The notes: a model not told the origin generated them from the sequence alone. DNA of 64,000 nucleotides from an uncultured Mycoplasmatota bacterium (GCA_946494015.1 CAMMBL010000002.1:1379-65378), one strand, 5' to 3'; shown: positions 15,951 to 64,000, numbered from the stretch's first letter. Made by a program: numbers and translations.

Positions 15951-15963
15951 AATAAAGTATTAT

Positions 15964-15989
15964 AGTGTCTAAACTCTGACACTTTTTTT
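15964..15989 (+). terminator. Rho-independent terminator AGTGTC-N8-GACACT plus T7 (first copy of the GTGTC/GACAC terminator family)
   Basis: Read directly. The same stem recurs after array genes 1-5. Confidence 0.75.
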
Positions 15990-16007
15990 CTTTTTATCAA
16001 AAAAGTA

Positions 16008-16037
16008 TTGCTATCTTCATTTTTTTTGTGCTATAGT
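16008..16037 (+). promoter_or_regulatory. Sigma-A-type promoter P1: TTGCTA, 18-nt spacer, TGcTATAGT (extended -10)
   Basis: Read directly. The spacer contains a T8 run at 16020-16027. GAAGGAGG RBS lies downstream. Confidence 0.65.
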
Positions 16038-16065
16038 TATATTGTAGAAGGAGGTTAGACAGAGA

Positions 16066-16671
16066 ATGAAAAACGATAATTCTAAGCATGTATTATTAGC
16101 TGTGCTTGGAGTAGCTATTTTAATTGTGGCTGTAGTTGGAGTATCATTTGCAGCATTTAGTTATAGTAAAACTGGAACAAAAGTTAATACTATTACAACA
16201 GGTACTATTACAATGAGTTATAGTGAAACTACTAATGGTATTAATTTAGTTGATGCTCTACCTATGACTGATACTCAAGGTAAAGCATTAACTGGTGAAA
16301 ATAACGTTTTTGATTTTACAGTAAGTGCTACTATTACTGGTACTACTACTATCAATTATGATATTACAGCAACAAAAGAAGAAGGTAGCAATATTGATGA
16401 TTCAGGAGTTAAAGTTTATTTAACTGATGGTGCAAATCCAAGTGAATCTCAAATATTAGCACCTACAAAAATATCTGCTTTATCAAAAACATCTTCAGCT
16501 GCTTCAGGAGCACCAGATGATCAATATATTTTAGAAACTGGTACTATTTCAGCAACTCAATCTAAAAACTATCGTTTAAGAATGTGGGTAGCTGATGATT
16601 ATACTAATCTTGGTACATCTGGTACTTATAAATTACGTGTAAATGTCTATGGAAAAGCAGCTGCACAATAA
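16066..16671 (+). CDS. TasA/camelysin-like SipW-cognate secreted protein, paralog 1
   Basis: 201 aa. One N-terminal hydrophobic helix followed by FAAFSYSKTGTKVNTITTGTITM. The C-terminus carries YRLRMWVAD...YKLRVNVYGKAAAQ. No Cys, lipobox or LPXTG. Strong RBS. Confidence 0.8.
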   Translation: MKNDNSKHVLLAVLGVAILIVAVVGVSFAAFSYSKTGTKVNTITTGTITMSYSETTNGINLVDALPMTDTQGKALTGENNVFDFTVSATITGTTTINYDITATKEEGSNIDDSGVKVYLTDGANPSESQILAPTKISALSKTSSAASGAPDDQYILETGTISATQSKNYRLRMWVADDYTNLGTSGTYKLRVNVYGKAAAQ

Positions 16672-16686
16672 GCTAATTTATATTAA

Positions 16687-16712
16687 AGTGTCTAATCTCT
16701 GACACTTTTTTT
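16687..16712 (+). terminator. Terminator AGTGTC-N8-GACACT plus T7
   Basis: Read directly. Confidence 0.75.
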
Positions 16713-16729
16713 CTTTTTTAAAAAAAGTA

Positions 16730-16759
16730 TTGCTATCTCTATTTTTTTTGTGCTATAGT
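16730..16759 (+). promoter_or_regulatory. Promoter P2: TTGCTA, 18-nt spacer, TGcTATAGT
   Basis: Near-identical to P1. T8 run at 16742-16749 within the spacer. Confidence 0.65.
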
Positions 16760-16787
16760 TATATTGTAGAAGGAGGTTAGACAGAGA

Positions 16788-17390
16788 ATGAAAAATGATA
16801 ATTCTAAGCAAGTATTATTATCAGTTCTTGGTGTGGCTATTTTAATTGTAGCTGTAGTTGGAGTATCATTTGCCGCATTTAGTTACAGTAAAACAGGAAC
16901 AAAAGTTAATACTATTACAACAGGTACTATTACTATGAATTATAGTGAAACTACTAATGGTATTAATTTGACTAATGCTTTACCTATGAGTGATGAAGTA
17001 GGAAAAAAATTAAGTGAAACTGATCAATATTTTGATTTTACTGTTAATGCTAATATTACAGGTAATACTACAATTAATTATGCTATTACAGCGACAAGAG
17101 AAGAAGATAGCGATATTCCAGATACAGGAGTTAAAGTTTATTTAACTGATATGGATGGTACTGCTGATACTGAAATATTAGGTCCTACAAAAATTTCAGC
17201 TTTATCAAAAACATCTTCTGATTCTTCAGGAGCACCTGATGGTCAATATCTTTTAGAAACTGATACATTTAATACAACAAGTTCACATAATTATCGTTTA
17301 AGAATGTGGGTAGCTGATGATTATAGTGTATCTGATACAGCTGGTACTTATAAGTTACGTGTTAATGTTTATGGTCAAGCAGCTGCTTAG
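16788..17390 (+). CDS. TasA/camelysin-like SipW-cognate secreted protein, paralog 2
   Basis: 200 aa with the same N-terminal and C-terminal blocks as paralog 1. The loop after NGINL is of the DEVGKKL..DQYFDF type shared with paralog 7. Confidence 0.8.
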   Translation: MKNDNSKQVLLSVLGVAILIVAVVGVSFAAFSYSKTGTKVNTITTGTITMNYSETTNGINLTNALPMSDEVGKKLSETDQYFDFTVNANITGNTTINYAITATREEDSDIPDTGVKVYLTDMDGTADTEILGPTKISALSKTSSDSSGAPDGQYLLETDTFNTTSSHNYRLRMWVADDYSVSDTAGTYKLRVNVYGQAAA

Positions 17391-17411
17391 TAATAGTATT
17401 ATTTATATTAA

Positions 17412-17434
17412 AGTGTCTAATCTCTGACACTTTT
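17412..17434 (+). terminator. Terminator AGTGTC-N8-GACACT plus T-run
   Basis: Read directly. Confidence 0.7.
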
Positions 17435-17444
17435 CTTTTTTTTC

Positions 17445-17474
17445 TTGCTTGCTTTTAATTTTATATGATATAGT
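17445..17474 (+). promoter_or_regulatory. Promoter P3: TTGCTT, 18-nt spacer, TGaTATAGT
   Basis: Read directly. Confidence 0.6.
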
Positions 17475-17501
17475 TTAATTATAGAAGGAGGATAATTTAT
17501 A

Positions 17502-18110
17502 ATGGAAGTTGATAATTCTAAGCAAGTATTATTATCAGTATTTGGAGTAGCTATTTTAGTAATTGCTGTTTTTGGAGTTTCTTTTGCCGCTTTTAATTAT
17601 TCTAAAACAGGTACTAAAGTTAATACTATTACAACAGGTACTATTACAATGAGTTATACAGAGCCTGATAACGGTATAAATCTTGCTAATGCAATGCCAA
17701 TGAGTGATTCTCAAGGTAAAGTATTAACTGGGGATAACAATGTTTTTGATTTTACAGTTACTACTACAATTGTTGGTACGGCAACAGTTAATTATACAAT
17801 TACAGCAACTAAAGAAGGAGATAGTACTATTCCAGATACAGGAGTTAAAGTTTATTTAACTAATATGGATGCTGATGCTGATTCACAAATATTAGCTCCT
17901 ACTTTAGTGTCAAATTTATCTAAAACTGGTTCTTCTGAACTTTCTGGTGCTCCAGCTAATCAGTATATCCTTAAATCAGATTCAACTACTAGTAGTGTTA
18001 ATCATAAATATCGTTTAAGAATGTGGGTAGCTGATACTTATACAGTTGGTGGTACTTCACAAACTTATAAATTAAGAGTTAATGTTTATGGTAAAGCTCC
18101 AGCTCAATAG
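17502..18110 (+). CDS. TasA/camelysin-like SipW-cognate secreted protein, paralog 3
   Basis: 202 aa. FAAFNYSKTGTKVNTITTGTITM and YRLRMWVADTY...YKLRVNVYGKAPAQ. Confidence 0.8.
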   Translation: MEVDNSKQVLLSVFGVAILVIAVFGVSFAAFNYSKTGTKVNTITTGTITMSYTEPDNGINLANAMPMSDSQGKVLTGDNNVFDFTVTTTIVGTATVNYTITATKEGDSTIPDTGVKVYLTNMDADADSQILAPTLVSNLSKTGSSELSGAPANQYILKSDSTTSSVNHKYRLRMWVADTYTVGGTSQTYKLRVNVYGKAPAQ

Positions 18111-18120
18111 TAGTTGGCGA

Positions 18121-18148
18121 AAAAGTGTCAAAATTTTGGACACTTTTT
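18121..18148 (+). terminator. Terminator AAAAGTGTC-N9-GACACTTTTT
   Basis: Read directly. Confidence 0.75.
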
Positions 18149-18156
18149 GTTTTTTC

Positions 18157-18186
18157 TTGCTTATTACCCACTTAATATGTTATAGT
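18157..18186 (+). promoter_or_regulatory. Promoter P4: TTGCTT, 18-nt spacer, TGtTATAGT
   Basis: Read directly. Confidence 0.6.
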
Positions 18187-18215
18187 TATAGAGTAGAAGG
18201 AGGTTAGACAAGAAA

Positions 18216-18824
18216 ATGAAAGGTAATAATTCTAAACAGTTATTATTATCAATACTTGGAGTAGCTATTTTAGTAGTAGCTGTAGTAGGTGTATCATTTG
18301 CGGCATTTAGTTATAGTAAAACAGGTACTAAAGTTAATACTATTACAACAGGTACTATTACAATGAGTTATGTTGAAGGTGAGAACGCAATTGATCTTAA
18401 AAATGCAATGCCAATGACTGATGTTAATGGTAAAGCTTTAACTGGAGATAATAATGTTTTTGACTTCACAGTAAATGCAACTATTACTGGTACTACTACT
18501 ATTGATTATGCAATTACAGCTACTAAAGAGCCTGATAGTACATTACCAGAGAGTGGAGTTAAAGTTTATTTAACTGACATGGATGCTGATGCTGATGATC
18601 AAATTTTAGCCCCTACACTTGTATCTAGTTTAGGTAAAACTACAAGTTCAGAAACTTCAGGAGCTCCAGTAGATCAATATAAACTTACAACAGGTACTTT
18701 TAATGCTACTACCACTCACAAATATCGTTTAAGAATGTGGGTAGCAGATACTTATAATGTTAGTGGTACTTCACAGACTTTCAAATTAAGAGTTAATGTC
18801 TATGGAAAAGCTGCTGCACAATAA
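18216..18824 (+). CDS. TasA/camelysin-like SipW-cognate secreted protein, paralog 4
   Basis: 202 aa with the same conserved blocks. Confidence 0.8.
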   Translation: MKGNNSKQLLLSILGVAILVVAVVGVSFAAFSYSKTGTKVNTITTGTITMSYVEGENAIDLKNAMPMTDVNGKALTGDNNVFDFTVNATITGTTTIDYAITATKEPDSTLPESGVKVYLTDMDADADDQILAPTLVSSLGKTTSSETSGAPVDQYKLTTGTFNATTTHKYRLRMWVADTYNVSGTSQTFKLRVNVYGKAAAQ

Positions 18825-18836
18825 AAGATAAATATA

Positions 18837-18859
18837 GTGTCAATTTTTTGACACTTTTT
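18837..18859 (+). terminator. Terminator GTGTCAA-N4-TTGACAC plus T5
   Basis: Read directly. Confidence 0.75.
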
Positions 18860-18867
18860 CTTTTTGC

Positions 18868-18897
18868 TTGCTTCGTTATTATTTATTATGTTATTAT
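18868..18897 (+). promoter_or_regulatory. Promoter P5: TTGCTT, 18-nt spacer, TGtTATTAT
   Basis: Read directly. Confidence 0.5.
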
Positions 18898-18930
18898 TAT
18901 ATTTGTAAGATATAAGGAGGTATATAATAA

Positions 18931-19542
18931 GTGAAGAATAGTAACAAAGGTAACAAACAAGTATTATTATCAATACTTGGAGTGGCTATTTTAGTTGTAG
19001 CTGTTATTGGTATATCCTTTGCCGCATTTAATTATAGTAAAACAGGAACAAAAGTTAATACCATTACAACAGGTACTATTACGATGAGCTATAGTGAGCC
19101 TACAAATGGGATTAATTTAGTTGATGCTCTACCAACAACAGATGCTAAAGGTAAGGCTTTAACAGGTGATGGTAAAGTGTTTGATTTTACAGTTAGTGCT
19201 ACTATTGATGGTGTTACAACTATTAATTATGATATTACAGCTGCTAAAGATGAAACAAGTACTTTAGATGATTCTATTATAAAAGTATATTTGACTAATA
19301 TGGATGGTGATAGTGATACTGAGATATTAGCTCCTACTAGAGCTTCTGAATTACCAACAACAACATCATCATCTTCAGGAGCGCCAGATGGTCAATTTAT
19401 TTTACGCTCAGGTACTATTACATCATCTGAATCACATGATTATCGTTTAAGAATGTGGGTAGCTGAAGATTTTTCGACATTGGGTGCTAAAGGTACTTAT
19501 AAATTAAGAGTTAATGTTTATGGTAAAGCTGATGCTCAATAA
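18931..19542 (+). CDS. TasA/camelysin-like SipW-cognate secreted protein, paralog 5
   Basis: 203 aa with a GTG start after AAGGAGG. FAAFNYSKTGTKVNTITTGTITM and YRLRMWVAEDF...YKLRVNVYGKADAQ. Confidence 0.8.
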   Translation: MKNSNKGNKQVLLSILGVAILVVAVIGISFAAFNYSKTGTKVNTITTGTITMSYSEPTNGINLVDALPTTDAKGKALTGDGKVFDFTVSATIDGVTTINYDITAAKDETSTLDDSIIKVYLTNMDGDSDTEILAPTRASELPTTTSSSSGAPDGQFILRSGTITSSESHDYRLRMWVAEDFSTLGAKGTYKLRVNVYGKADAQ

Positions 19543-19552
19543 TTTTTAATAT

Positions 19553-19578
19553 AAGTGTCAAAAAAAAGACACTTTTTT
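19553..19578 (+). terminator. Terminator AAGTGTC-A8-GACACTT plus T-run
   Basis: Read directly. Confidence 0.7.
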
Positions 19579-19596
19579 CTTTTAAGCAAATAAAAC

Positions 19597-19626
19597 TTGC
19601 TAATACTATTTTTTGTGTGATATATT
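19597..19626 (+). promoter_or_regulatory. Promoter P6: TTGCTA, 18-nt spacer, TGaTATATT
   Basis: Read directly. Confidence 0.6.
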
Positions 19627-19651
19627 AATACTAAGAAGGAGAATAGACATA

Positions 19652-20248
19652 ATGGAAAAAAATAGAAAACAGATTATATGGTCAATTATAGGTATTGTTA
19701 TTTTAATATTAATGGCTATAAGTGTAAGTTATGCTGCAGTTTTTTATAGTAAAACTGGTGAAAAAGTTAATACGGTAACTACAGGTACAATTACAATGAG
19801 TTATAGTGAGAATACTAATGGTATAAATCTTACAGATGCTTATCCTATGGCTGATGGTATTGGTAAGACATTAAGTCAACAAAATCAATATTTTGATTTT
19901 ACAATTAGTGCTACTCTAGGTGATACTATTATTAATTATGCTGTTACTGCTACTAAAGAATCTGATAGTACTTTACCAGATAATGCTGTAAAAGTATATT
20001 TGACTGATATTAATGGCGGAGCTGATAAGGAAATATTAGCACCAACTAAAATATCTGATTTAGATATAACTAGATCACACGTATCAGGAGCACCAGATGG
20101 TCAATTCTTGTTATATAGTAACAGTTTTAGTAAAAATACATCAAATAATTATCGTTTAAGAATGTGGGTAGCTAGTGATTATGTTCTTCCACTTGAAAGC
20201 CAAACATACAAATTAAGAGTTAACGTTTATGGTAGTGTAGTAGCTTAA
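19652..20248 (+). CDS. TasA/camelysin-like SipW-cognate secreted protein, paralog 6
   Basis: 198 aa from the ATG at 19652, preceded by an AGGAG RBS; the ORF track TTG at 19613 lies inside the promoter. SYAAVFYSKTGEKVNTVTTGTITM and YRLRMWVASDY...YKLRVNVYG. Confidence 0.8.
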   Translation: MEKNRKQIIWSIIGIVILILMAISVSYAAVFYSKTGEKVNTVTTGTITMSYSENTNGINLTDAYPMADGIGKTLSQQNQYFDFTISATLGDTIINYAVTATKESDSTLPDNAVKVYLTDINGGADKEILAPTKISDLDITRSHVSGAPDGQFLLYSNSFSKNTSNNYRLRMWVASDYVLPLESQTYKLRVNVYGSVVA

Positions 20249-20264
20249 ATTTATAAAAATATAA

Positions 20265-20292
20265 GGTGTAATATAAGAAACTACACTTTTTT
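20265..20292 (+). terminator. Weaker terminator GTGTA-N11-TACAC plus T6
   Basis: Read directly. Only a 5-bp stem. Confidence 0.45.
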
Positions 20293-20293
20293 C

Positions 20294-20322
20294 TTTACCT
20301 AAAAAAATTCCTGTGGTACAAT
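20294..20322 (+). promoter_or_regulatory. Promoter P7: TTTACC, 17-nt spacer, TGgTACAAT
   Basis: Read directly. Confidence 0.5.
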
Positions 20323-20349
20323 TATTTTAAAGTATAGGGAGTGTTTATT

Positions 20350-20982
20350 ATGAATAATCAAAATTCTGAAGATAAAATAATTGAGAAAAATTCTAGTAGT
20401 AAATTATTTATTATAATAATTGCACTTTTAATATTTAGTATTACAATAGTTGGTGTTTCTCTTGCGACTTTTACTTATACTAAGGAAAAAGAAAATATAA
20501 ATACTATTAGTACGGGAAATATTTATTTAAATTATACAGAAGATACTAATGGAATAAATATTACTGATGCTTATCCTATGGCTGATGAAGTAGGTAAAAA
20601 ACTTACTAATGAAGATCAGTATTTTGATTTTTCAGTTAAAGCTGATTTAACAGGTAATGTTGTTACTAATTATGAAATAGCTGCTGAAAAGACTGAAACT
20701 TCAACACTTAATAATGACGAAGTTAGATTGTATTTAGAAAAAAAAGTTGATGATACTTATCAAGAAGTTATGGCTCCTAAAGAATTTACTCCTTTGAAAG
20801 AAAGTACAGAAATTGGTACTTTAGCAGGAACAATGTTGTTAGATAAAGCTTCTTTCAAAAAAAGTGGCATAATTAATTATCGTTTAAGAATGTGGGTAGC
20901 TGATGATGCAATTTTAACTGATATACAAAAAAGTTTTGGAGTTAAAGTTTCTATAAAAGCTAAAGTTGATTTAGACAAATAA
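20350..20982 (+). CDS. TasA/camelysin-like SipW-cognate secreted protein, paralog 7 (most divergent of the array)
   Basis: 210 aa from the ATG at 20350 (GGGAG RBS 8 nt upstream). SLATFTYTKEKENINTISTGNIYL and YRLRMWVADD...FGVKVSIKAKV. Longer cytoplasmic N-tail, and it lacks the SGAP motif of paralogs 1-6. Confidence 0.75.
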   Translation: MNNQNSEDKIIEKNSSSKLFIIIIALLIFSITIVGVSLATFTYTKEKENINTISTGNIYLNYTEDTNGINITDAYPMADEVGKKLTNEDQYFDFSVKADLTGNVVTNYEIAAEKTETSTLNNDEVRLYLEKKVDDTYQEVMAPKEFTPLKESTEIGTLAGTMLLDKASFKKSGIINYRLRMWVADDAILTDIQKSFGVKVSIKAKVDLDK

Positions 20983-21069: not shown

Positions 21070-21744
21070 ATGAAAAATAATAAAAAAAATTGGTTATATA
21101 CATTAAAGAAATTTTTCCATTTCTTGACAACAGTTTTAATGTATTCTATTTGTTTATTAATGGTAATCATTTTTTTAGTATTTGTAGTTAACTTTATTGA
21201 TAAACAAAATAATATTAAAGCTGGTAATAATAAAAAAGATCTTTTATCAGCTTATACAATAGTTAGTCCAAGTATGGTTCCAGCGATAAACGTTCTTGAT
21301 GTAGTTGTTACTAAAAGAGTAGATGATCCTAATGAATTAAAAAAGGGAGATATTATTACTTTTAATTCTACTGATTATAGGTATTCTGGTGTTACAGTAA
21401 CTCATAGAATTGTTGATATAGAAAAAACTAGTAATGGTAAATATTTATATGTTACGAAGGGTGATAATAATAATACTCAAGATTCTTCGAGAATTAGCTT
21501 TGATGAGATTTATGGCGAAGTAATATTTAGAATTCCTAAGATAGGGTATATTCAATATTATCTTAGTTCTATACTTGGTTGGGTATTTATAATTATAATA
21601 CCAGCTGTTATGATTATTATTTATGATATATATAAATTAGTTAAGACTTTAAACACTAAGGATGATAGTAAGGGTAACAAAAAAAATAAAGATAAAACTG
21701 TTAAGAAAAAAGAGAATGTTAAGAAGAGGAGATTTGAAAAATGA
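21070..21744 (+). CDS. sipW: SipW-type (ER/archaeal-type, S26B) signal peptidase I
   Basis: N-terminal TM helix, catalytic Ser box VSPSMVPAI, VTHRIV His box (Ser/His type, no Lys box), KGDNN box and a C-terminal TM helix. Reads collinear with B. subtilis SipW (LSGSMEP...VTHRIVDI...TKGDNN, from memory). A K-rich tail follows. Confidence 0.85.
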   Translation: MKNNKKNWLYTLKKFFHFLTTVLMYSICLLMVIIFLVFVVNFIDKQNNIKAGNNKKDLLSAYTIVSPSMVPAINVLDVVVTKRVDDPNELKKGDIITFNSTDYRYSGVTVTHRIVDIEKTSNGKYLYVTKGDNNNTQDSSRISFDEIYGEVIFRIPKIGYIQYYLSSILGWVFIIIIPAVMIIIYDIYKLVKTLNTKDDSKGNKKNKDKTVKKKENVKKRRFEK

Positions 21745-22280
21745 AAAAGAAGATATTGTTAATAATGGCGGGGTTTGCTTTATTTGTCTTTATTTTGACA
21801 ACATCTATGCTATGGTTTAATTTCTTTTATGATGAACCTGATGTAAATACAATTAGTTCTATACAAGTACAACTTAGTGATACTAATAATGTAATTAATG
21901 AAGCAAATTTAATTCCACTTGATGAAGAAACAGCTAAGTATCTTACTCCTTATGAATTTAGGGTTAGTAATCAAAGTGATGCTGCAACAACTTACAATGT
22001 GTTATTAGAAGATGCAATTATTAGTGATGATATTAATTATAGTAGTAAAGAATTATTAAGTAGAAATCAGTTAGAATATCAATTATCACTTAATGGTAGA
22101 GTTATAAAACATGGTATGTTAAGTGATATAAAGAATAATATTTTGGATACTAGGAATATTGGTACTAATCAAGAAAATTATTATCAATTAAGAATATATG
22201 TAAGTGAAAAAGCTCAAACAAGTGCATGGCAAAATAAATATTATCATTTTAATATAAGAGTACAAATGGAGGATAAATAA
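21741..22280 (+). CDS. Divergent eighth member of the fibre-subunit family (candidate anchor or minor subunit)
   Basis: 179 aa; its ATG overlaps the sipW stop (ATGA). The N-terminal TM helix is followed by WFNFFYDEPDVNTISSIQVQLSDTNNVIN, compared with FAAFSYSKTGTKVNTITTGTITMSYSETTNGIN in the array. YQLRIYVSE and YHFNIRVQ mirror YRLRMWVAD and YKLRVNVYG. Confidence 0.7.
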   Translation: MKKKILLIMAGFALFVFILTTSMLWFNFFYDEPDVNTISSIQVQLSDTNNVINEANLIPLDEETAKYLTPYEFRVSNQSDAATTYNVLLEDAIISDDINYSSKELLSRNQLEYQLSLNGRVIKHGMLSDIKNNILDTRNIGTNQENYYQLRIYVSEKAQTSAWQNKYYHFNIRVQMEDK

Positions 22281-22282
22281 AG

Positions 22283-22972
22283 ATGAAAAAGATTTTATTA
22301 GAGTATGCTAATATTATTGGTTATACTATTACAGGTTTGATTTTTGGATTATCGTTTTTTCTATTATTTATTAATTTTTATCATTCACAAGAATTAAGTT
22401 ATGTTGCTGATGTAAGTGAGTATAATACAATAAATAAAGATACTGTTTCTCAGAAAATTGCTACAATAAGAGCTAATTTAAGTGTATATAATCAAGCAAA
22501 TTATAGTGGTAATTTGAATATCTATGGTCTTAATACAGCTCAAATAAAATTAGAGGAATGTTTAAAAATTATAGAAAGTCCAGAAATGATGGCATATTTT
22601 GAGAAAAAAGAAATTCAATTAAAAGATAGTTATAATTTTGCTGTAGATTTTAAAAATAAGATTTTAAATGATTGTTTAGTTATGCAAGTTAAATCTATGT
22701 TTAATACTGATACAGTATCTAAGCTTCCTAATTTTGATATTATTAAACCATATGTTGAACTTAGTTTAAATAATTTATTAAGCTCATCAGCTTATGTACA
22801 GGCTGATTTAGAAAATGCTGATCATTATTTCTTTAATACAAATGGCAATAGAACTAATTTCTTTGATTTAGTTAATGATAGTTATTCTAATATTATGAAT
22901 GATTATCAAGATTCACTTGATTTATTAGTAGAAATTTCGGCTTGGTTTAAGAGTATAGTAATAGGAGGATAA
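22283..22972 (+). CDS. Hypothetical single-pass membrane protein with a ~190-aa extracytoplasmic domain
   Basis: Starts 2 nt after the preceding stop. N-terminal TM helix (ITGLIFGLSFFLLFINF). No family recognised. Confidence 0.6.
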   Translation: MKKILLEYANIIGYTITGLIFGLSFFLLFINFYHSQELSYVADVSEYNTINKDTVSQKIATIRANLSVYNQANYSGNLNIYGLNTAQIKLEECLKIIESPEMMAYFEKKEIQLKDSYNFAVDFKNKILNDCLVMQVKSMFNTDTVSKLPNFDIIKPYVELSLNNLLSSSAYVQADLENADHYFFNTNGNRTNFFDLVNDSYSNIMNDYQDSLDLLVEISAWFKSIVIGG

Positions 22973-22973
22973 G

Positions 22974-23426
22974 ATGAAAAAGATACTTAATGGTTTATTT
23001 TATTTTTTAAAATTTTTATTGTTGATTGGTGCTTTTGGATTAACTTTATTTATTTTAGTAAGAATGAATATAAGATTAGATAAAAGTGTAACTACAATTA
23101 TTCCTGAAATTGTACCATTTATACTAATATTACTTGTATTTATTATTAATTTTATTTTTAAACAAAAAGGTGTTACTGATAATGTATTTTATAATATTAC
23201 TTGTTGTTTGGTATTTACTACTATAATAGTAGCAAGTTTAAGAGCAATTTTTGATACAAATATGGTTCTTAATAAGAAATATGGTTATGGTATTGATTTT
23301 AATTTTTTTGATAATTTTATTGCTTATATTAAGATTATGGTTTATGGATTATCAATCGCTAATTTATTTTTAATGTTTAGAGAAAAAGATAAAGATGAAA
23401 AGCCTAAGAAAGAAAAAAAAGCTTAG
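22974..23426 (+). CDS. Hypothetical polytopic (~4 TM) membrane protein with a Lys-rich C-terminal tail
   Basis: Starts 1 nt after the preceding stop. Four hydrophobic segments. No family recognised. Confidence 0.6.
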   Translation: MKKILNGLFYFLKFLLLIGAFGLTLFILVRMNIRLDKSVTTIIPEIVPFILILLVFIINFIFKQKGVTDNVFYNITCCLVFTTIIVASLRAIFDTNMVLNKKYGYGIDFNFFDNFIAYIKIMVYGLSIANLFLMFREKDKDEKPKKEKKA

Positions 23427-63190: not shown

Positions 63191-64000
63191 AACCCCTAGA
63201 TAGTCTAGGGGTTCAGTAAAGCTTTAGCGATGAGTTGAAAATAAAAACTCCTTCTAATATAATATGAGTTGCGACTGCCAAGAAGCAACCATAATATTAG
63301 AAAGAGTACATTTATAATGAAAGAAATCAAAATAAATGATATAAAGAGTTTAGCACATACAACGTGGAATTGTAAATATCATATAGTATTTGCACCAAAG
63401 TATAGACGAAAAGTCTTTTACGCAAGTAAAAGGTTAGAAATAGGATAAATATTAAGACAATTATGTGAATGGAAAGGTGTAACAATAATAGAAGCGGAAG
63501 TTTGTCCCGATCATATACATATGTTACTAGAAATACCACTTAAATATAGTGTGTCATCATTCATGGAATTTCTGAAAGGTAAAAGTAGCTTGATGATATA
63601 TAGTAGGTGGGCAAGCGCAAGGTATCAATATAGAAATAGAGAGTTTTGGTGTAGAGGATATTATGCTGATACTGTAGGAAAAAATACAAGAAAAATAAAA
63701 GAATATATAGCAAATCAACTAAAAGAAGATCAATTAAGTGGACAGATGACACTTGAAGATTTTGACCCTTTTAAAGGGTAGCAAGTAATGAATGCTTTTG
63801 GCAGTTGAGTTAGACACTTTAGTGAGTGCCAGTAGTATAGCCTTTTAGGCGAAAAAGAAAAACTACTAGCTATGATAGTGGAAATTTATTATTATGCAAA
63901 ACATCAGTTTTGCATTCAAAACCACCAGCTAGCTGATGTAAATAGTAAAGAGCGAGCCCATCAAAAAACATATAAATCTCCTCCTGTTATAATATAAATG
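63191..64000 (+). mobile_element. IS200/IS605-family element (right boundary not resolved; may run off the window)
   Basis: Perfect 10-bp hairpin AACCCCTAGA-tag-TCTAGGGGTT (63191-63213). A 16-nt imperfect stem (63248-63263 / 63291-63306) covers the tnpA SD. A Y1 transposase gene follows. Downstream hairpin ATGCAAAAC-atca-GTTTTGCAT at 63894-63915. Confidence 0.8.
63317..63781 (+). pseudogene. tnpA: IS200-type Y1 (HUH) transposase TnpA with an in-frame TAA at 63446-63448
   Basis: MKEIKINDIKSLAHTTWNCKYHIVFAPKYRRKVFYASKRLEIG-TAA-ILRQLCEWKGV...PDHIHMLLEIP (HUH)...RGYYADTVG (catalytic Tyr), all in one frame. Homologs have Lys where the stop occurs. Confidence 0.85.

Follow-up and report, generated by a model that had tools for sequence, protein, structure and literature searches.

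In this work, a tandem array of paralogous genes was analysed in a 64,000-nt stretch of DNA from an uncultured Mycoplasmatota bacterium (GCA_946494015.1 CAMMBL010000002.1:1379-65378); this whole stretch is called the window, and all coordinates are positions in it. The array, at 16066-20982, consists of seven genes on the same strand (g1 to g7), each encoding a protein of about 200 amino acids (aa), and the identity to g1 is 76% for g2, 70% for g3, 73% for g4, 71% for g5, 58% for g6 and 35% for g7. A preliminary description of the region had counted seven paralogs; seven do make up the array, and a distant eighth one (P8, 28% identical) lies at 21741-22280, after a signal peptidase gene that starts with the ATG at 21070. 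For g6 and g7, starts at 19613 and 20341 are less likely than those at 19652 and 20350, respectively, to judge by the gene calls on identical metagenome contigs. The genes of the locus are listed here, with the classes that are introduced below.

16066-16671, plus strand: g1, 201 aa, class C; signal peptide, predicted SFA↓AF cleavage (arrow, cut), N-terminal strand and beta-sandwich.
16788-17390, plus strand: g2, 200 aa, class A/B; ortholog of the first array gene of other species.
17502-18110, plus strand: g3, 202 aa, class A/B; lineage-specific duplicate, sister of g4.
18216-18824, plus strand: g4, 202 aa, class A/B; nearest to the second-position genes of other species.
18931-19542, plus strand: g5, 203 aa, class C; long-branch lineage-specific copy.
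19652-20248, plus strand: g6, 198 aa from the ATG at 19652, class D; cross-species signatures AAVFYSK... and DYVLP...
20350-20982, plus strand: g7, 210 aa from the ATG at 20350, class E; most divergent member of the array.
21070-21744, plus strand: signal peptidase I of the SipW/archaeal type, 224 aa; SPSM, THRIV and KGDNN motifs, N- and C-terminal hydrophobic segments.
21741-22280, plus strand: P8, 179 aa, the eighth paralog.
22283-22972, plus strand: protein of 229 aa whose N-terminal part carries a hydrophobic segment; no family match.
22974-23426, plus strand: 150-aa hydrophobic protein, probably a multi-pass membrane protein; no family match.

The preliminary description had reported conserved blocks alternating with variable patches along the paralogs, and this alternation is real and located where it had been placed. 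The mature region of g1-g6 comprises 172 aligned columns, of which 75 are invariant and 58 hold at least three residues. The variable columns cluster, with a lag-1 autocorrelation of 0.198 against -0.007 +/- 0.075 after shuffling (34 of 10,000 shuffles were as high), and the longest invariant run, eight columns, is unexceptional (986 of 10,000 shuffles). Most of the blocks described as almost invariant are altered in g7 (LATFTYTKEKENINTISTGNIYLNY, EVRLYLE, VMAPK, FGVKVSIKA). The patches are variable; calling them hypervariable was overstated, because they are still 40% identical among the window paralogs and 62-75% identical between the orthologs of different species.

The structure of the proteins was predicted with AlphaFold2 from a 123-sequence alignment (predicted local distance difference test score, pLDDT, 80.7; predicted template modelling score 0.75). 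The model has a signal helix, a disordered stretch at residues 20-37 and a ten-strand sandwich. The blocks match the predicted strands 40-52, 58-62, 81-88, 96-104, 115-121, 128-135, 165-176 and 187-198, and the patches fall largely between strands, with patch 151-168 also spanning the predicted strand 154-161. In the model, the blocks thus coincide with predicted beta-strands, together with the signal-peptide cleavage site and the N-terminal strand. The N-terminal strand region is unplaced, with pLDDT <50, in this model and in a second one made without the signal peptide, where the first 17 mature residues are unplaced; this second model made the fold search no sharper. The N-terminal segment of about 23 residues is also more strongly conserved than any other part of the mature protein (omega, the dN/dS ratio, 0.17 by counting and 0.019 by likelihood, as described below); its strand hardly differs between classes A/B and C and is conserved in a class-specific form in D and E.

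Selection was analysed on 67 homologous array genes from 15 genomes (199 sites) with a parsimony counting method in the style of Suzuki and Gojobori (1756 synonymous and 1996 nonsynonymous changes) and with a per-site likelihood test that used GY94-type rates, F3x4 frequencies and a fixed neighbour-joining (NJ) tree (kappa 1.9, global omega 0.07). By counting, the blocks had omega values of 0.04-0.28 and the patches of 0.33-0.70, and 124 of the 199 sites were significantly negative. The sole nominally positive site was residue 3 of the signal peptide (p=0.036), and the top mature site was 157 (omega 2.3, p=0.057). By likelihood, none of the 199 sites had a nonsynonymous rate (beta) above the synonymous rate (alpha) at p<0.05, and beta was below alpha at 180; the patches had ratios of means of 0.02-0.12 and the blocks of 0.004-0.046, and the highest mature-site ratio was 0.82, again at site 157. 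The synonymous rate was equal in strands and non-strands (p=0.32 by counting, p=0.71 for alpha), whereas the nonsynonymous rate was lower in strands (p=1e-4 by counting, 6e-5 for beta). The patches are under weaker yet still purifying selection, and the cleavage site, the N-terminal strand and the core strands are very strongly constrained.

The preliminary description had explained the mosaic by diversifying surface loops, as in antigenic or receptor-binding variation or phage evasion; on this view, the array would be a repertoire of alternative surface variants. The conserved framework and, by inference from the model, the variable segments between strands stand; the diversification of these segments is not supported. 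The variable columns do cluster between predicted strands, and pairwise omega in the pre-selected patches of the window copies alone reached 0.46-1.29. However, such values near 1 are no evidence for adaptation, since the patches had been chosen as variable and the synonymous sites are near saturation. In the 67 sequences, dN/dS was below 1 in every patch and no mature site had significant dN>dS by either method, so the site-wise comparison that had been proposed as a check came out largely against diversification.

The relationships among species point in the same direction. In total, 68 related loci were recovered from uncultured gut Bacilli. The complete main loci have 3-7 array genes, followed by the peptidase gene and then by a P8-like gene and two downstream genes; the window has the most array genes (seven) among typical loci. 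A peptidase homolog was detectable after the array in 50 of the 68, and most of the remaining ones stop before the place of the peptidase gene or represent secondary loci whose proteins are large and fused. In an NJ tree of 15 genomes the genes group by position across species, as A/B (g2, g3, g4), C (g1, g5), D (g6), E (g7) and P8, and the usual gene order is A-B-C-D-E-peptidase-P8. The genes g3/g4 and g5 look like lineage-specific duplicates. The loop motifs are class-specific and kept across species (DYS.LGTSGTY in C, DYVLPDFSQTY in D, TILDNLEKSFGVRVSIKAKVDL in E), and the patch identity is 0.65 within the same class of different genomes against 0.37 between different classes of the same genome. 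For the closest genomes, the best cross-species identity of the paralogs is 64-82%, mostly 70-80%, and that of TatD and RsmA is 64-72%. With 62-75% ortholog identity, the patches are about as conserved as these whole housekeeping proteins (mostly 64-72%). Both this figure and the conservation of classes and gene order speak against the diversifying loops. The paralogs are ancient classes, at least four in the array (A/B, C, D, E) plus a fifth after the peptidase gene, and not a fast-evolving set of cassettes. The mosaic points to long-standing specialisation of subunit classes with relaxed constraint in the variable segments and no ongoing diversification. The classes probably have distinct roles, for example as bulk subunits and as adaptor, terminal or anchor subunits.

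At the strain level, contigs with g1 from three other samples belong to the same strain, with 0, 2 and 0 mismatches (two bases in 12.4 kb), and the sole single-nucleotide difference inside a paralog, at 19062 in g5, leaves the protein unchanged. The protein comparison rests on members of 90% identity clusters only, which mostly differ from the window by one substitution (A123G in g1, T143S in g5, L to I in NGINL of g6, A to V in g7). Of the g2 variants, one has only an extra C-terminal residue and another has three g1-like changes. The variants of the neighbouring proteins differ by one residue (RsmA) or by one or two (TatD). The excess of between-strain variation expected by the preliminary description was therefore absent, because the paralogs vary by about one residue, like TatD and RsmA, and this also argues against diversifying loops.

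An alternative explanation of the mosaic is concerted evolution, in which gene conversion would keep the framework identical and the unconverted segments would drift. The g1 and g2 regions (15951-16240 and 16672-16960) do share upstream units that are about 95% identical, and the 5' third of the two genes is 91.5% identical at the nucleotide level against 78.6% for the rest; the 5' identity is also somewhat raised among g1-g5. The g2 variant mentioned above (protein P0018), with the g1-like residues Q8H, S12A and N51S in its N-terminal part, fits this explanation as well. However, it lies on a 1.1-kb metagenome contig and may be an assembly chimera, so that either local gene conversion or such a chimera would account for it. 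Among the window copies, the pairwise proportion of synonymous differences (pS) is 0.25-0.55 in the blocks and 0.29-0.59 in the patches, and that of nonsynonymous differences (pN) is 0.03-0.15 and 0.24-0.48, respectively. Because synonymous divergence is alike in both, the blocks are held by purifying selection and not by gene conversion. Synonymous differences thus remain in the conserved blocks (pS 0.25-0.48), and residues 30-52 have the synonymous rate of the gene average in the 67 sequences (12.0 against 13.1 changes per synonymous site). Furthermore, no two copies share an uninterrupted identical stretch of more than 55 nt, and the paralogs group with the orthologs of other species and not with each other. 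Concerted evolution is consequently a very improbable cause of the mosaic.

The intergenic regions carry a common module 5' of each array gene. It consists of a GC-stem hairpin with a T-run, a promoter-like sequence TTGCT(A/T)-17/18-TG-n-TATAGT and the ribosome-binding site GAAGGAGG, and it is weaker 5' of g7. The units are as follows.

15964-16065, plus strand: upstream unit of g1; terminator-like hairpin 15964-15983, TTGCTA-18-TATAGT with TG at 16008-16037, ribosome-binding site GAAGGAGG.
16672-16787, plus strand: g1-g2 unit; hairpin terminator 16685-16708, promoter-like sequence 16730-16759, ribosome-binding site; about 95% identical to the unit 5' of g1.
17391-17501, plus strand: g2-g3 unit; terminator 17410-17433, promoter-like CTTGCTT...TATAGT, ribosome-binding site.
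18111-18215, plus strand: g3-g4 unit; hairpin, promoter-like sequence, ribosome-binding site.
18825-18930, plus strand: g4-g5 unit; terminator 18836-18855, promoter-like sequence, ribosome-binding site.
19543-19651, plus strand: g5-g6 unit; terminator 19553-19574, promoter-like sequence 19597-19626, ribosome-binding site.
20249-20349, plus strand: g6-g7 unit; weaker hairpin, promoter-like sequence 20294-20322.

By these predicted signals every array gene is its own transcription unit, with a hairpin, a promoter and a strong ribosome-binding site. The promoters look sigma-A-like, and no terminator was found between g7 and the peptidase gene. Tracts of eight T occur in the promoter spacers 5' of g1 (about 16020-16030) and g2 (about 16742-16752) and are possible slipped-strand sites; their lengths are the same in the three other metagenome samples. 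A promoter of its own for each copy would make differential expression possible, and this, together with the two T8 tracts, could favour a repertoire of surface variants. However, the search for invertible elements or promoter-flanking inverted repeats returned only terminator hairpins that pair with each other and low-complexity matches, and no silent cassettes or length-variable repeats were found at the array. Diversifying loops are in our view a highly improbable explanation; the mosaic itself is ordinary, as it maps the constraint along the members of an old beta-sandwich family divided into classes, and it is no ground for inferring antigenic variation.

The product of the adjacent peptidase gene scores 96.4 bits with TIGR02228 (cut-off 51.85) and 99.6 bits (E 1.5e-28) with the SipW equivalog model, which is below the equivalog cut-off of 190. 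P8 is without the A-x-A↓AF motif and the GTITM strand and has a conserved TS.LW[FY].FFY instead (TSMLWFNFFY in the window), so it may be an uncleaved, membrane-anchored member. Homologs of the 229-aa and 150-aa proteins (22283-23426) were detected in most related loci whose sequence extends into this flank, with 26-75% identity, and the two are possible assembly or anchoring factors.

A possible relationship to TasA was seen in profile alignments. By hhalign, residues 7-77 of g1 align with residues 5-68 of TasA (sequence verified against PDB 8AUR) with 33% identity, E 7.6e-4 and a probability of 25%, and SFA↓AF falls on TWA↓AF. In the hhalign alignments SFA↓AFSYSK...GTITMSY...INL..ALP is paired with TWA↓AFNDIK...GTLDLSA...VNL..LKP of TasA. 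Further comparisons with TasA gave E 4.7e-4 at 32% and, profile against profile, E 2.3e-4 at 45%. The donor strand of TasA comprises residues 28-38 (PMC9674648). Searches with Foldseek placed the archaeal bundling pilin AbpA (7UEG) first or seventh, with a probability of 0.96-0.97, E 2e-3 to 5.5e-3 and a template modelling (TM) score of 0.32-0.37, and also returned FimG pilins and PA14/CBM-type and lectin-like sandwiches at similar levels. Taken together, the SipW-type peptidase, the N-terminal alignments, the function that the donor strand has in TasA and the AbpA match make a link to TasA plausible, either as a distant relationship or as a shared N-terminal module of processing site and strand.

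We propose that the array probably encodes the subunits of an extracellular fibre or matrix system that is TasA-like and SipW-dependent and belongs to uncultured low-GC gut Bacilli related to Candidatus Onthousia. After export by Sec, the peptidase encoded in the locus would cut ...VSFA↓AFSYSK..., which would expose the conserved N-terminal strand ahead of the beta-sandwich domain. By analogy with TasA and AbpA, the freed strand would be donated to an adjacent subunit and enter its sandwich (donor-strand complementation), and a polymer would form. The class-wise conservation of the N-terminal strand would fit co-assembly with assigned positions, and P8 may remain in the membrane as an anchor.

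Several points weigh against this proposal. All Foldseek E-values are above 1e-3, the TM score of AbpA is only 0.32-0.37, TasA is outside the top 50 and lectin- or CBM-like sandwiches score similarly. The profile similarity to TasA is confined to the first 60-70 residues or so, with probabilities of 25-45%. PF12389 gave no match at E<=1 with four paralogs or at E<=0.1 with 70 diverse relatives, and NF046066 scored 14.8 bits (E 0.015, cut-off 450) and was matched by 5 of the 70 relatives, with a best E of 0.0013; judged by these models, the proteins are not members of the TasA family proper. The selection tests were run in code of our own on an NJ tree, and the absolute omega depends on the method (0.33 against 0.07 overall), a gap that follows from the near-saturation of synonymous sites in an AT-rich genome, although the sign agrees.

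The proteins could instead be secreted, membrane- or wall-associated surface modules that act as monomers, for example in glycan binding, and the N-terminal module would then be only a targeting and processing signal. The similar Foldseek E-values of PA14/CBM-type sandwiches and pilins would agree with such modules, and so would the limitation of the TasA homology to the signal and N-terminal segment. Moreover, the same N-terminal domain heads proteins of 300-1700 aa with Big_2 and Listeria-Bacteroides repeats, which are typical of surface adhesins. On the other hand, AlphaFold leaves the most conserved mature segment undocked on its own domain, as expected of an intermolecular strand, and the several conserved classes with a near-identical N-terminal strand in A/B and C fit co-assembly. 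The known loci with a dedicated SipW-type peptidase (TasA/TapA, CalY) make fibres (PMC9674648, PMC9245690). For these reasons, monomeric modules seem unlikely to us, and a SipW-dependent, TasA-like system is preferred.

The family itself is large. A profile search found 4,928 clusters (50% identity) at E<=1e-3 and 2,104 at E<=1e-10, and in many of them the domain is the N-terminal part of proteins of 300-1700 aa; of nine longer proteins scanned, four carry Big_2 and/or Listeria-Bacteroides repeats. Metagenome-assembled genomes (MAGs) with the main locus also encode, on other contigs, proteins of about 600-1200 aa that start with the same N-terminal module. These are candidate adhesin-fused subunits, and they were located as follows, with L059 from the same MAG as main locus L039, L064 from that of L012 and L065 from that of L031.

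L059, 4744-8596: long protein with the N-terminal module.
L064, 9899-11836: long protein with the N-terminal module.
L065, 9917-11710: long protein with the N-terminal module.
L062, 9887-13453: long protein with the N-terminal module.

No family was assigned to the paralogs or to the two downstream proteins by Pfam, NCBIfam and PADLOC scans, a family-profile search of PDB sequences gave nothing relevant, and a full-text literature search found no paper on this paralog family.

One of the closest known parallels is the tapA-sipW-tasA locus of Bacillus subtilis, whose TasA (PF12389) makes biofilm fibres and where a dedicated archaeal-type signal peptidase is likewise encoded beside its substrates. 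As in TasA, AF comes after a predicted signal peptide with small-x-A at its end, and a beta-sandwich is predicted; the N-terminal segment can be aligned, at low probability, with the TasA donor strand and the first strands after it. A divergent additional member and accessory proteins likewise belong to the locus. The paralogs differ from TasA in that the TasA models do not match them, no sequence homology is detectable in the globular domain and TasA is absent from the top structural matches. Moreover, B. subtilis has one major subunit and TapA, whereas here there are 7+1 subunit genes of at least five conserved classes, each array gene has its own predicted promoter and terminator, and the host belongs to the uncultured gut Bacilli. 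The sipW-tasA-calY locus of B. cereus has more than one TasA-like paralog beside sipW (PMC4292775), which offers a precedent for paralogous subunits with distinct roles. However, the two B. cereus paralogs match PF12389, and the present locus has many more copies of a different, unannotated family.

The subunit of the archaeal AbpA pili (7UEG) resembles the paralogs in size (204-aa precursor), and it has a jelly-roll-type sandwich and an N-terminal donor strand, where a sandwich is predicted and a donor strand proposed for the paralogs; the archaeal filaments of the TasA superfamily also include threads, cannulae and Tafi pili. Tafi loci with extra tip and anchor components were described (bioRxiv 10.64898/2026.01.04.697558). 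In contrast, AbpA has no sequence similarity to the paralogs, its locus is without a dedicated peptidase (PMC9245690), and the present host is bacterial. The type 1 pili (FimA/F/G/H) are comparable only in the way they work, as paralogous sandwich subunits that are joined by N-terminal donor strands and take class-specific positions. They belong to diderm bacteria and depend on a periplasmic chaperone and an outer-membrane usher, neither of which occurs here, and there is no homology.

A more detailed model is offered tentatively, and we consider it rather doubtful. In it, a monoderm bacterium would assemble an ordered, heteropolymeric donor-strand fibre and need no chaperone, usher or sortase. 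Classes A/B and C would supply interchangeable shaft subunits, D and E would be adaptor or terminal subunits, the uncleaved P8 would be the membrane anchor and the long Big_2/Listeria-Bacteroides proteins would be adhesive tips. If true, such a fibre would be the functional counterpart of type 1 pili in a Gram-positive bacterium, and its subunits would come from a previously unannotated family that is very widespread in gut Bacilli.

Other candidates were rejected. Sortase-assembled pili do not fit, as the C-termini (...RVNVYGKAAAQ) are without LPXTG or a hydrophobic tail and no sortase match was found among the locus proteins scanned. For type IV pilins, the only match was PilA4 (E 0.12, 13.2 bits, cut-off 26.8), and the G↓F-x-x-x-E motif is absent. 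A defence system had no PADLOC match, and a spore-associated role was rejected in view of the sigma-A-like promoters and of the flanking gene order given below. A phase-variable contingency repertoire was likewise discarded (0 sites with beta>alpha, patch omega <1, no excess strain variation, no switching device found).

Upstream, the locus is flanked by metG, tatD and a 3D-domain gene, and downstream by rsmA; the flanking gene order is metG, tatD, 3D-domain gene, rsmA, Peptidase_U57 gene, veg and spoVG, which we take to resemble the common Firmicutes arrangement near the origin, as in B. subtilis. The GC content is about 25%, and among named relatives the nearest are MAGs of Candidatus Onthousia (Bacilli incertae sedis) that were obtained from the gut. 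In the segment 16001-20000, the array has a GC fraction of 0.30 against about 0.25 around it, and a GC skew of 0.14-0.18 against 0.3-0.4; both may result from a composition rich in Thr, Gly and Ala. Rfam found nothing at the array locus at E<=1. Elsewhere in the window, 63191-63303 (plus strand) matches RF01405 (STnc490, a Salmonella family of Hfq-binding small RNAs) with 57.1 bits against a gathering score of 56 (E 1.7e-8), which is unexpected for a Bacilli genome of 25% GC.

The best reading of the locus is an uncharacterised, widespread, multi-class variant of the SipW-dependent TasA-like systems. It defines a large family that has no Pfam or NCBIfam model and is linked, in uncultured Bacilli of the gut, to a dedicated SipW-type peptidase. 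If its products form TasA-like multi-class fibres, a little-known part of the animal gut microbiota would have in them one of its major surface or matrix structures, and donor-strand fibres with a division of labour among subunits would thereby be extended to monoderm bacteria.

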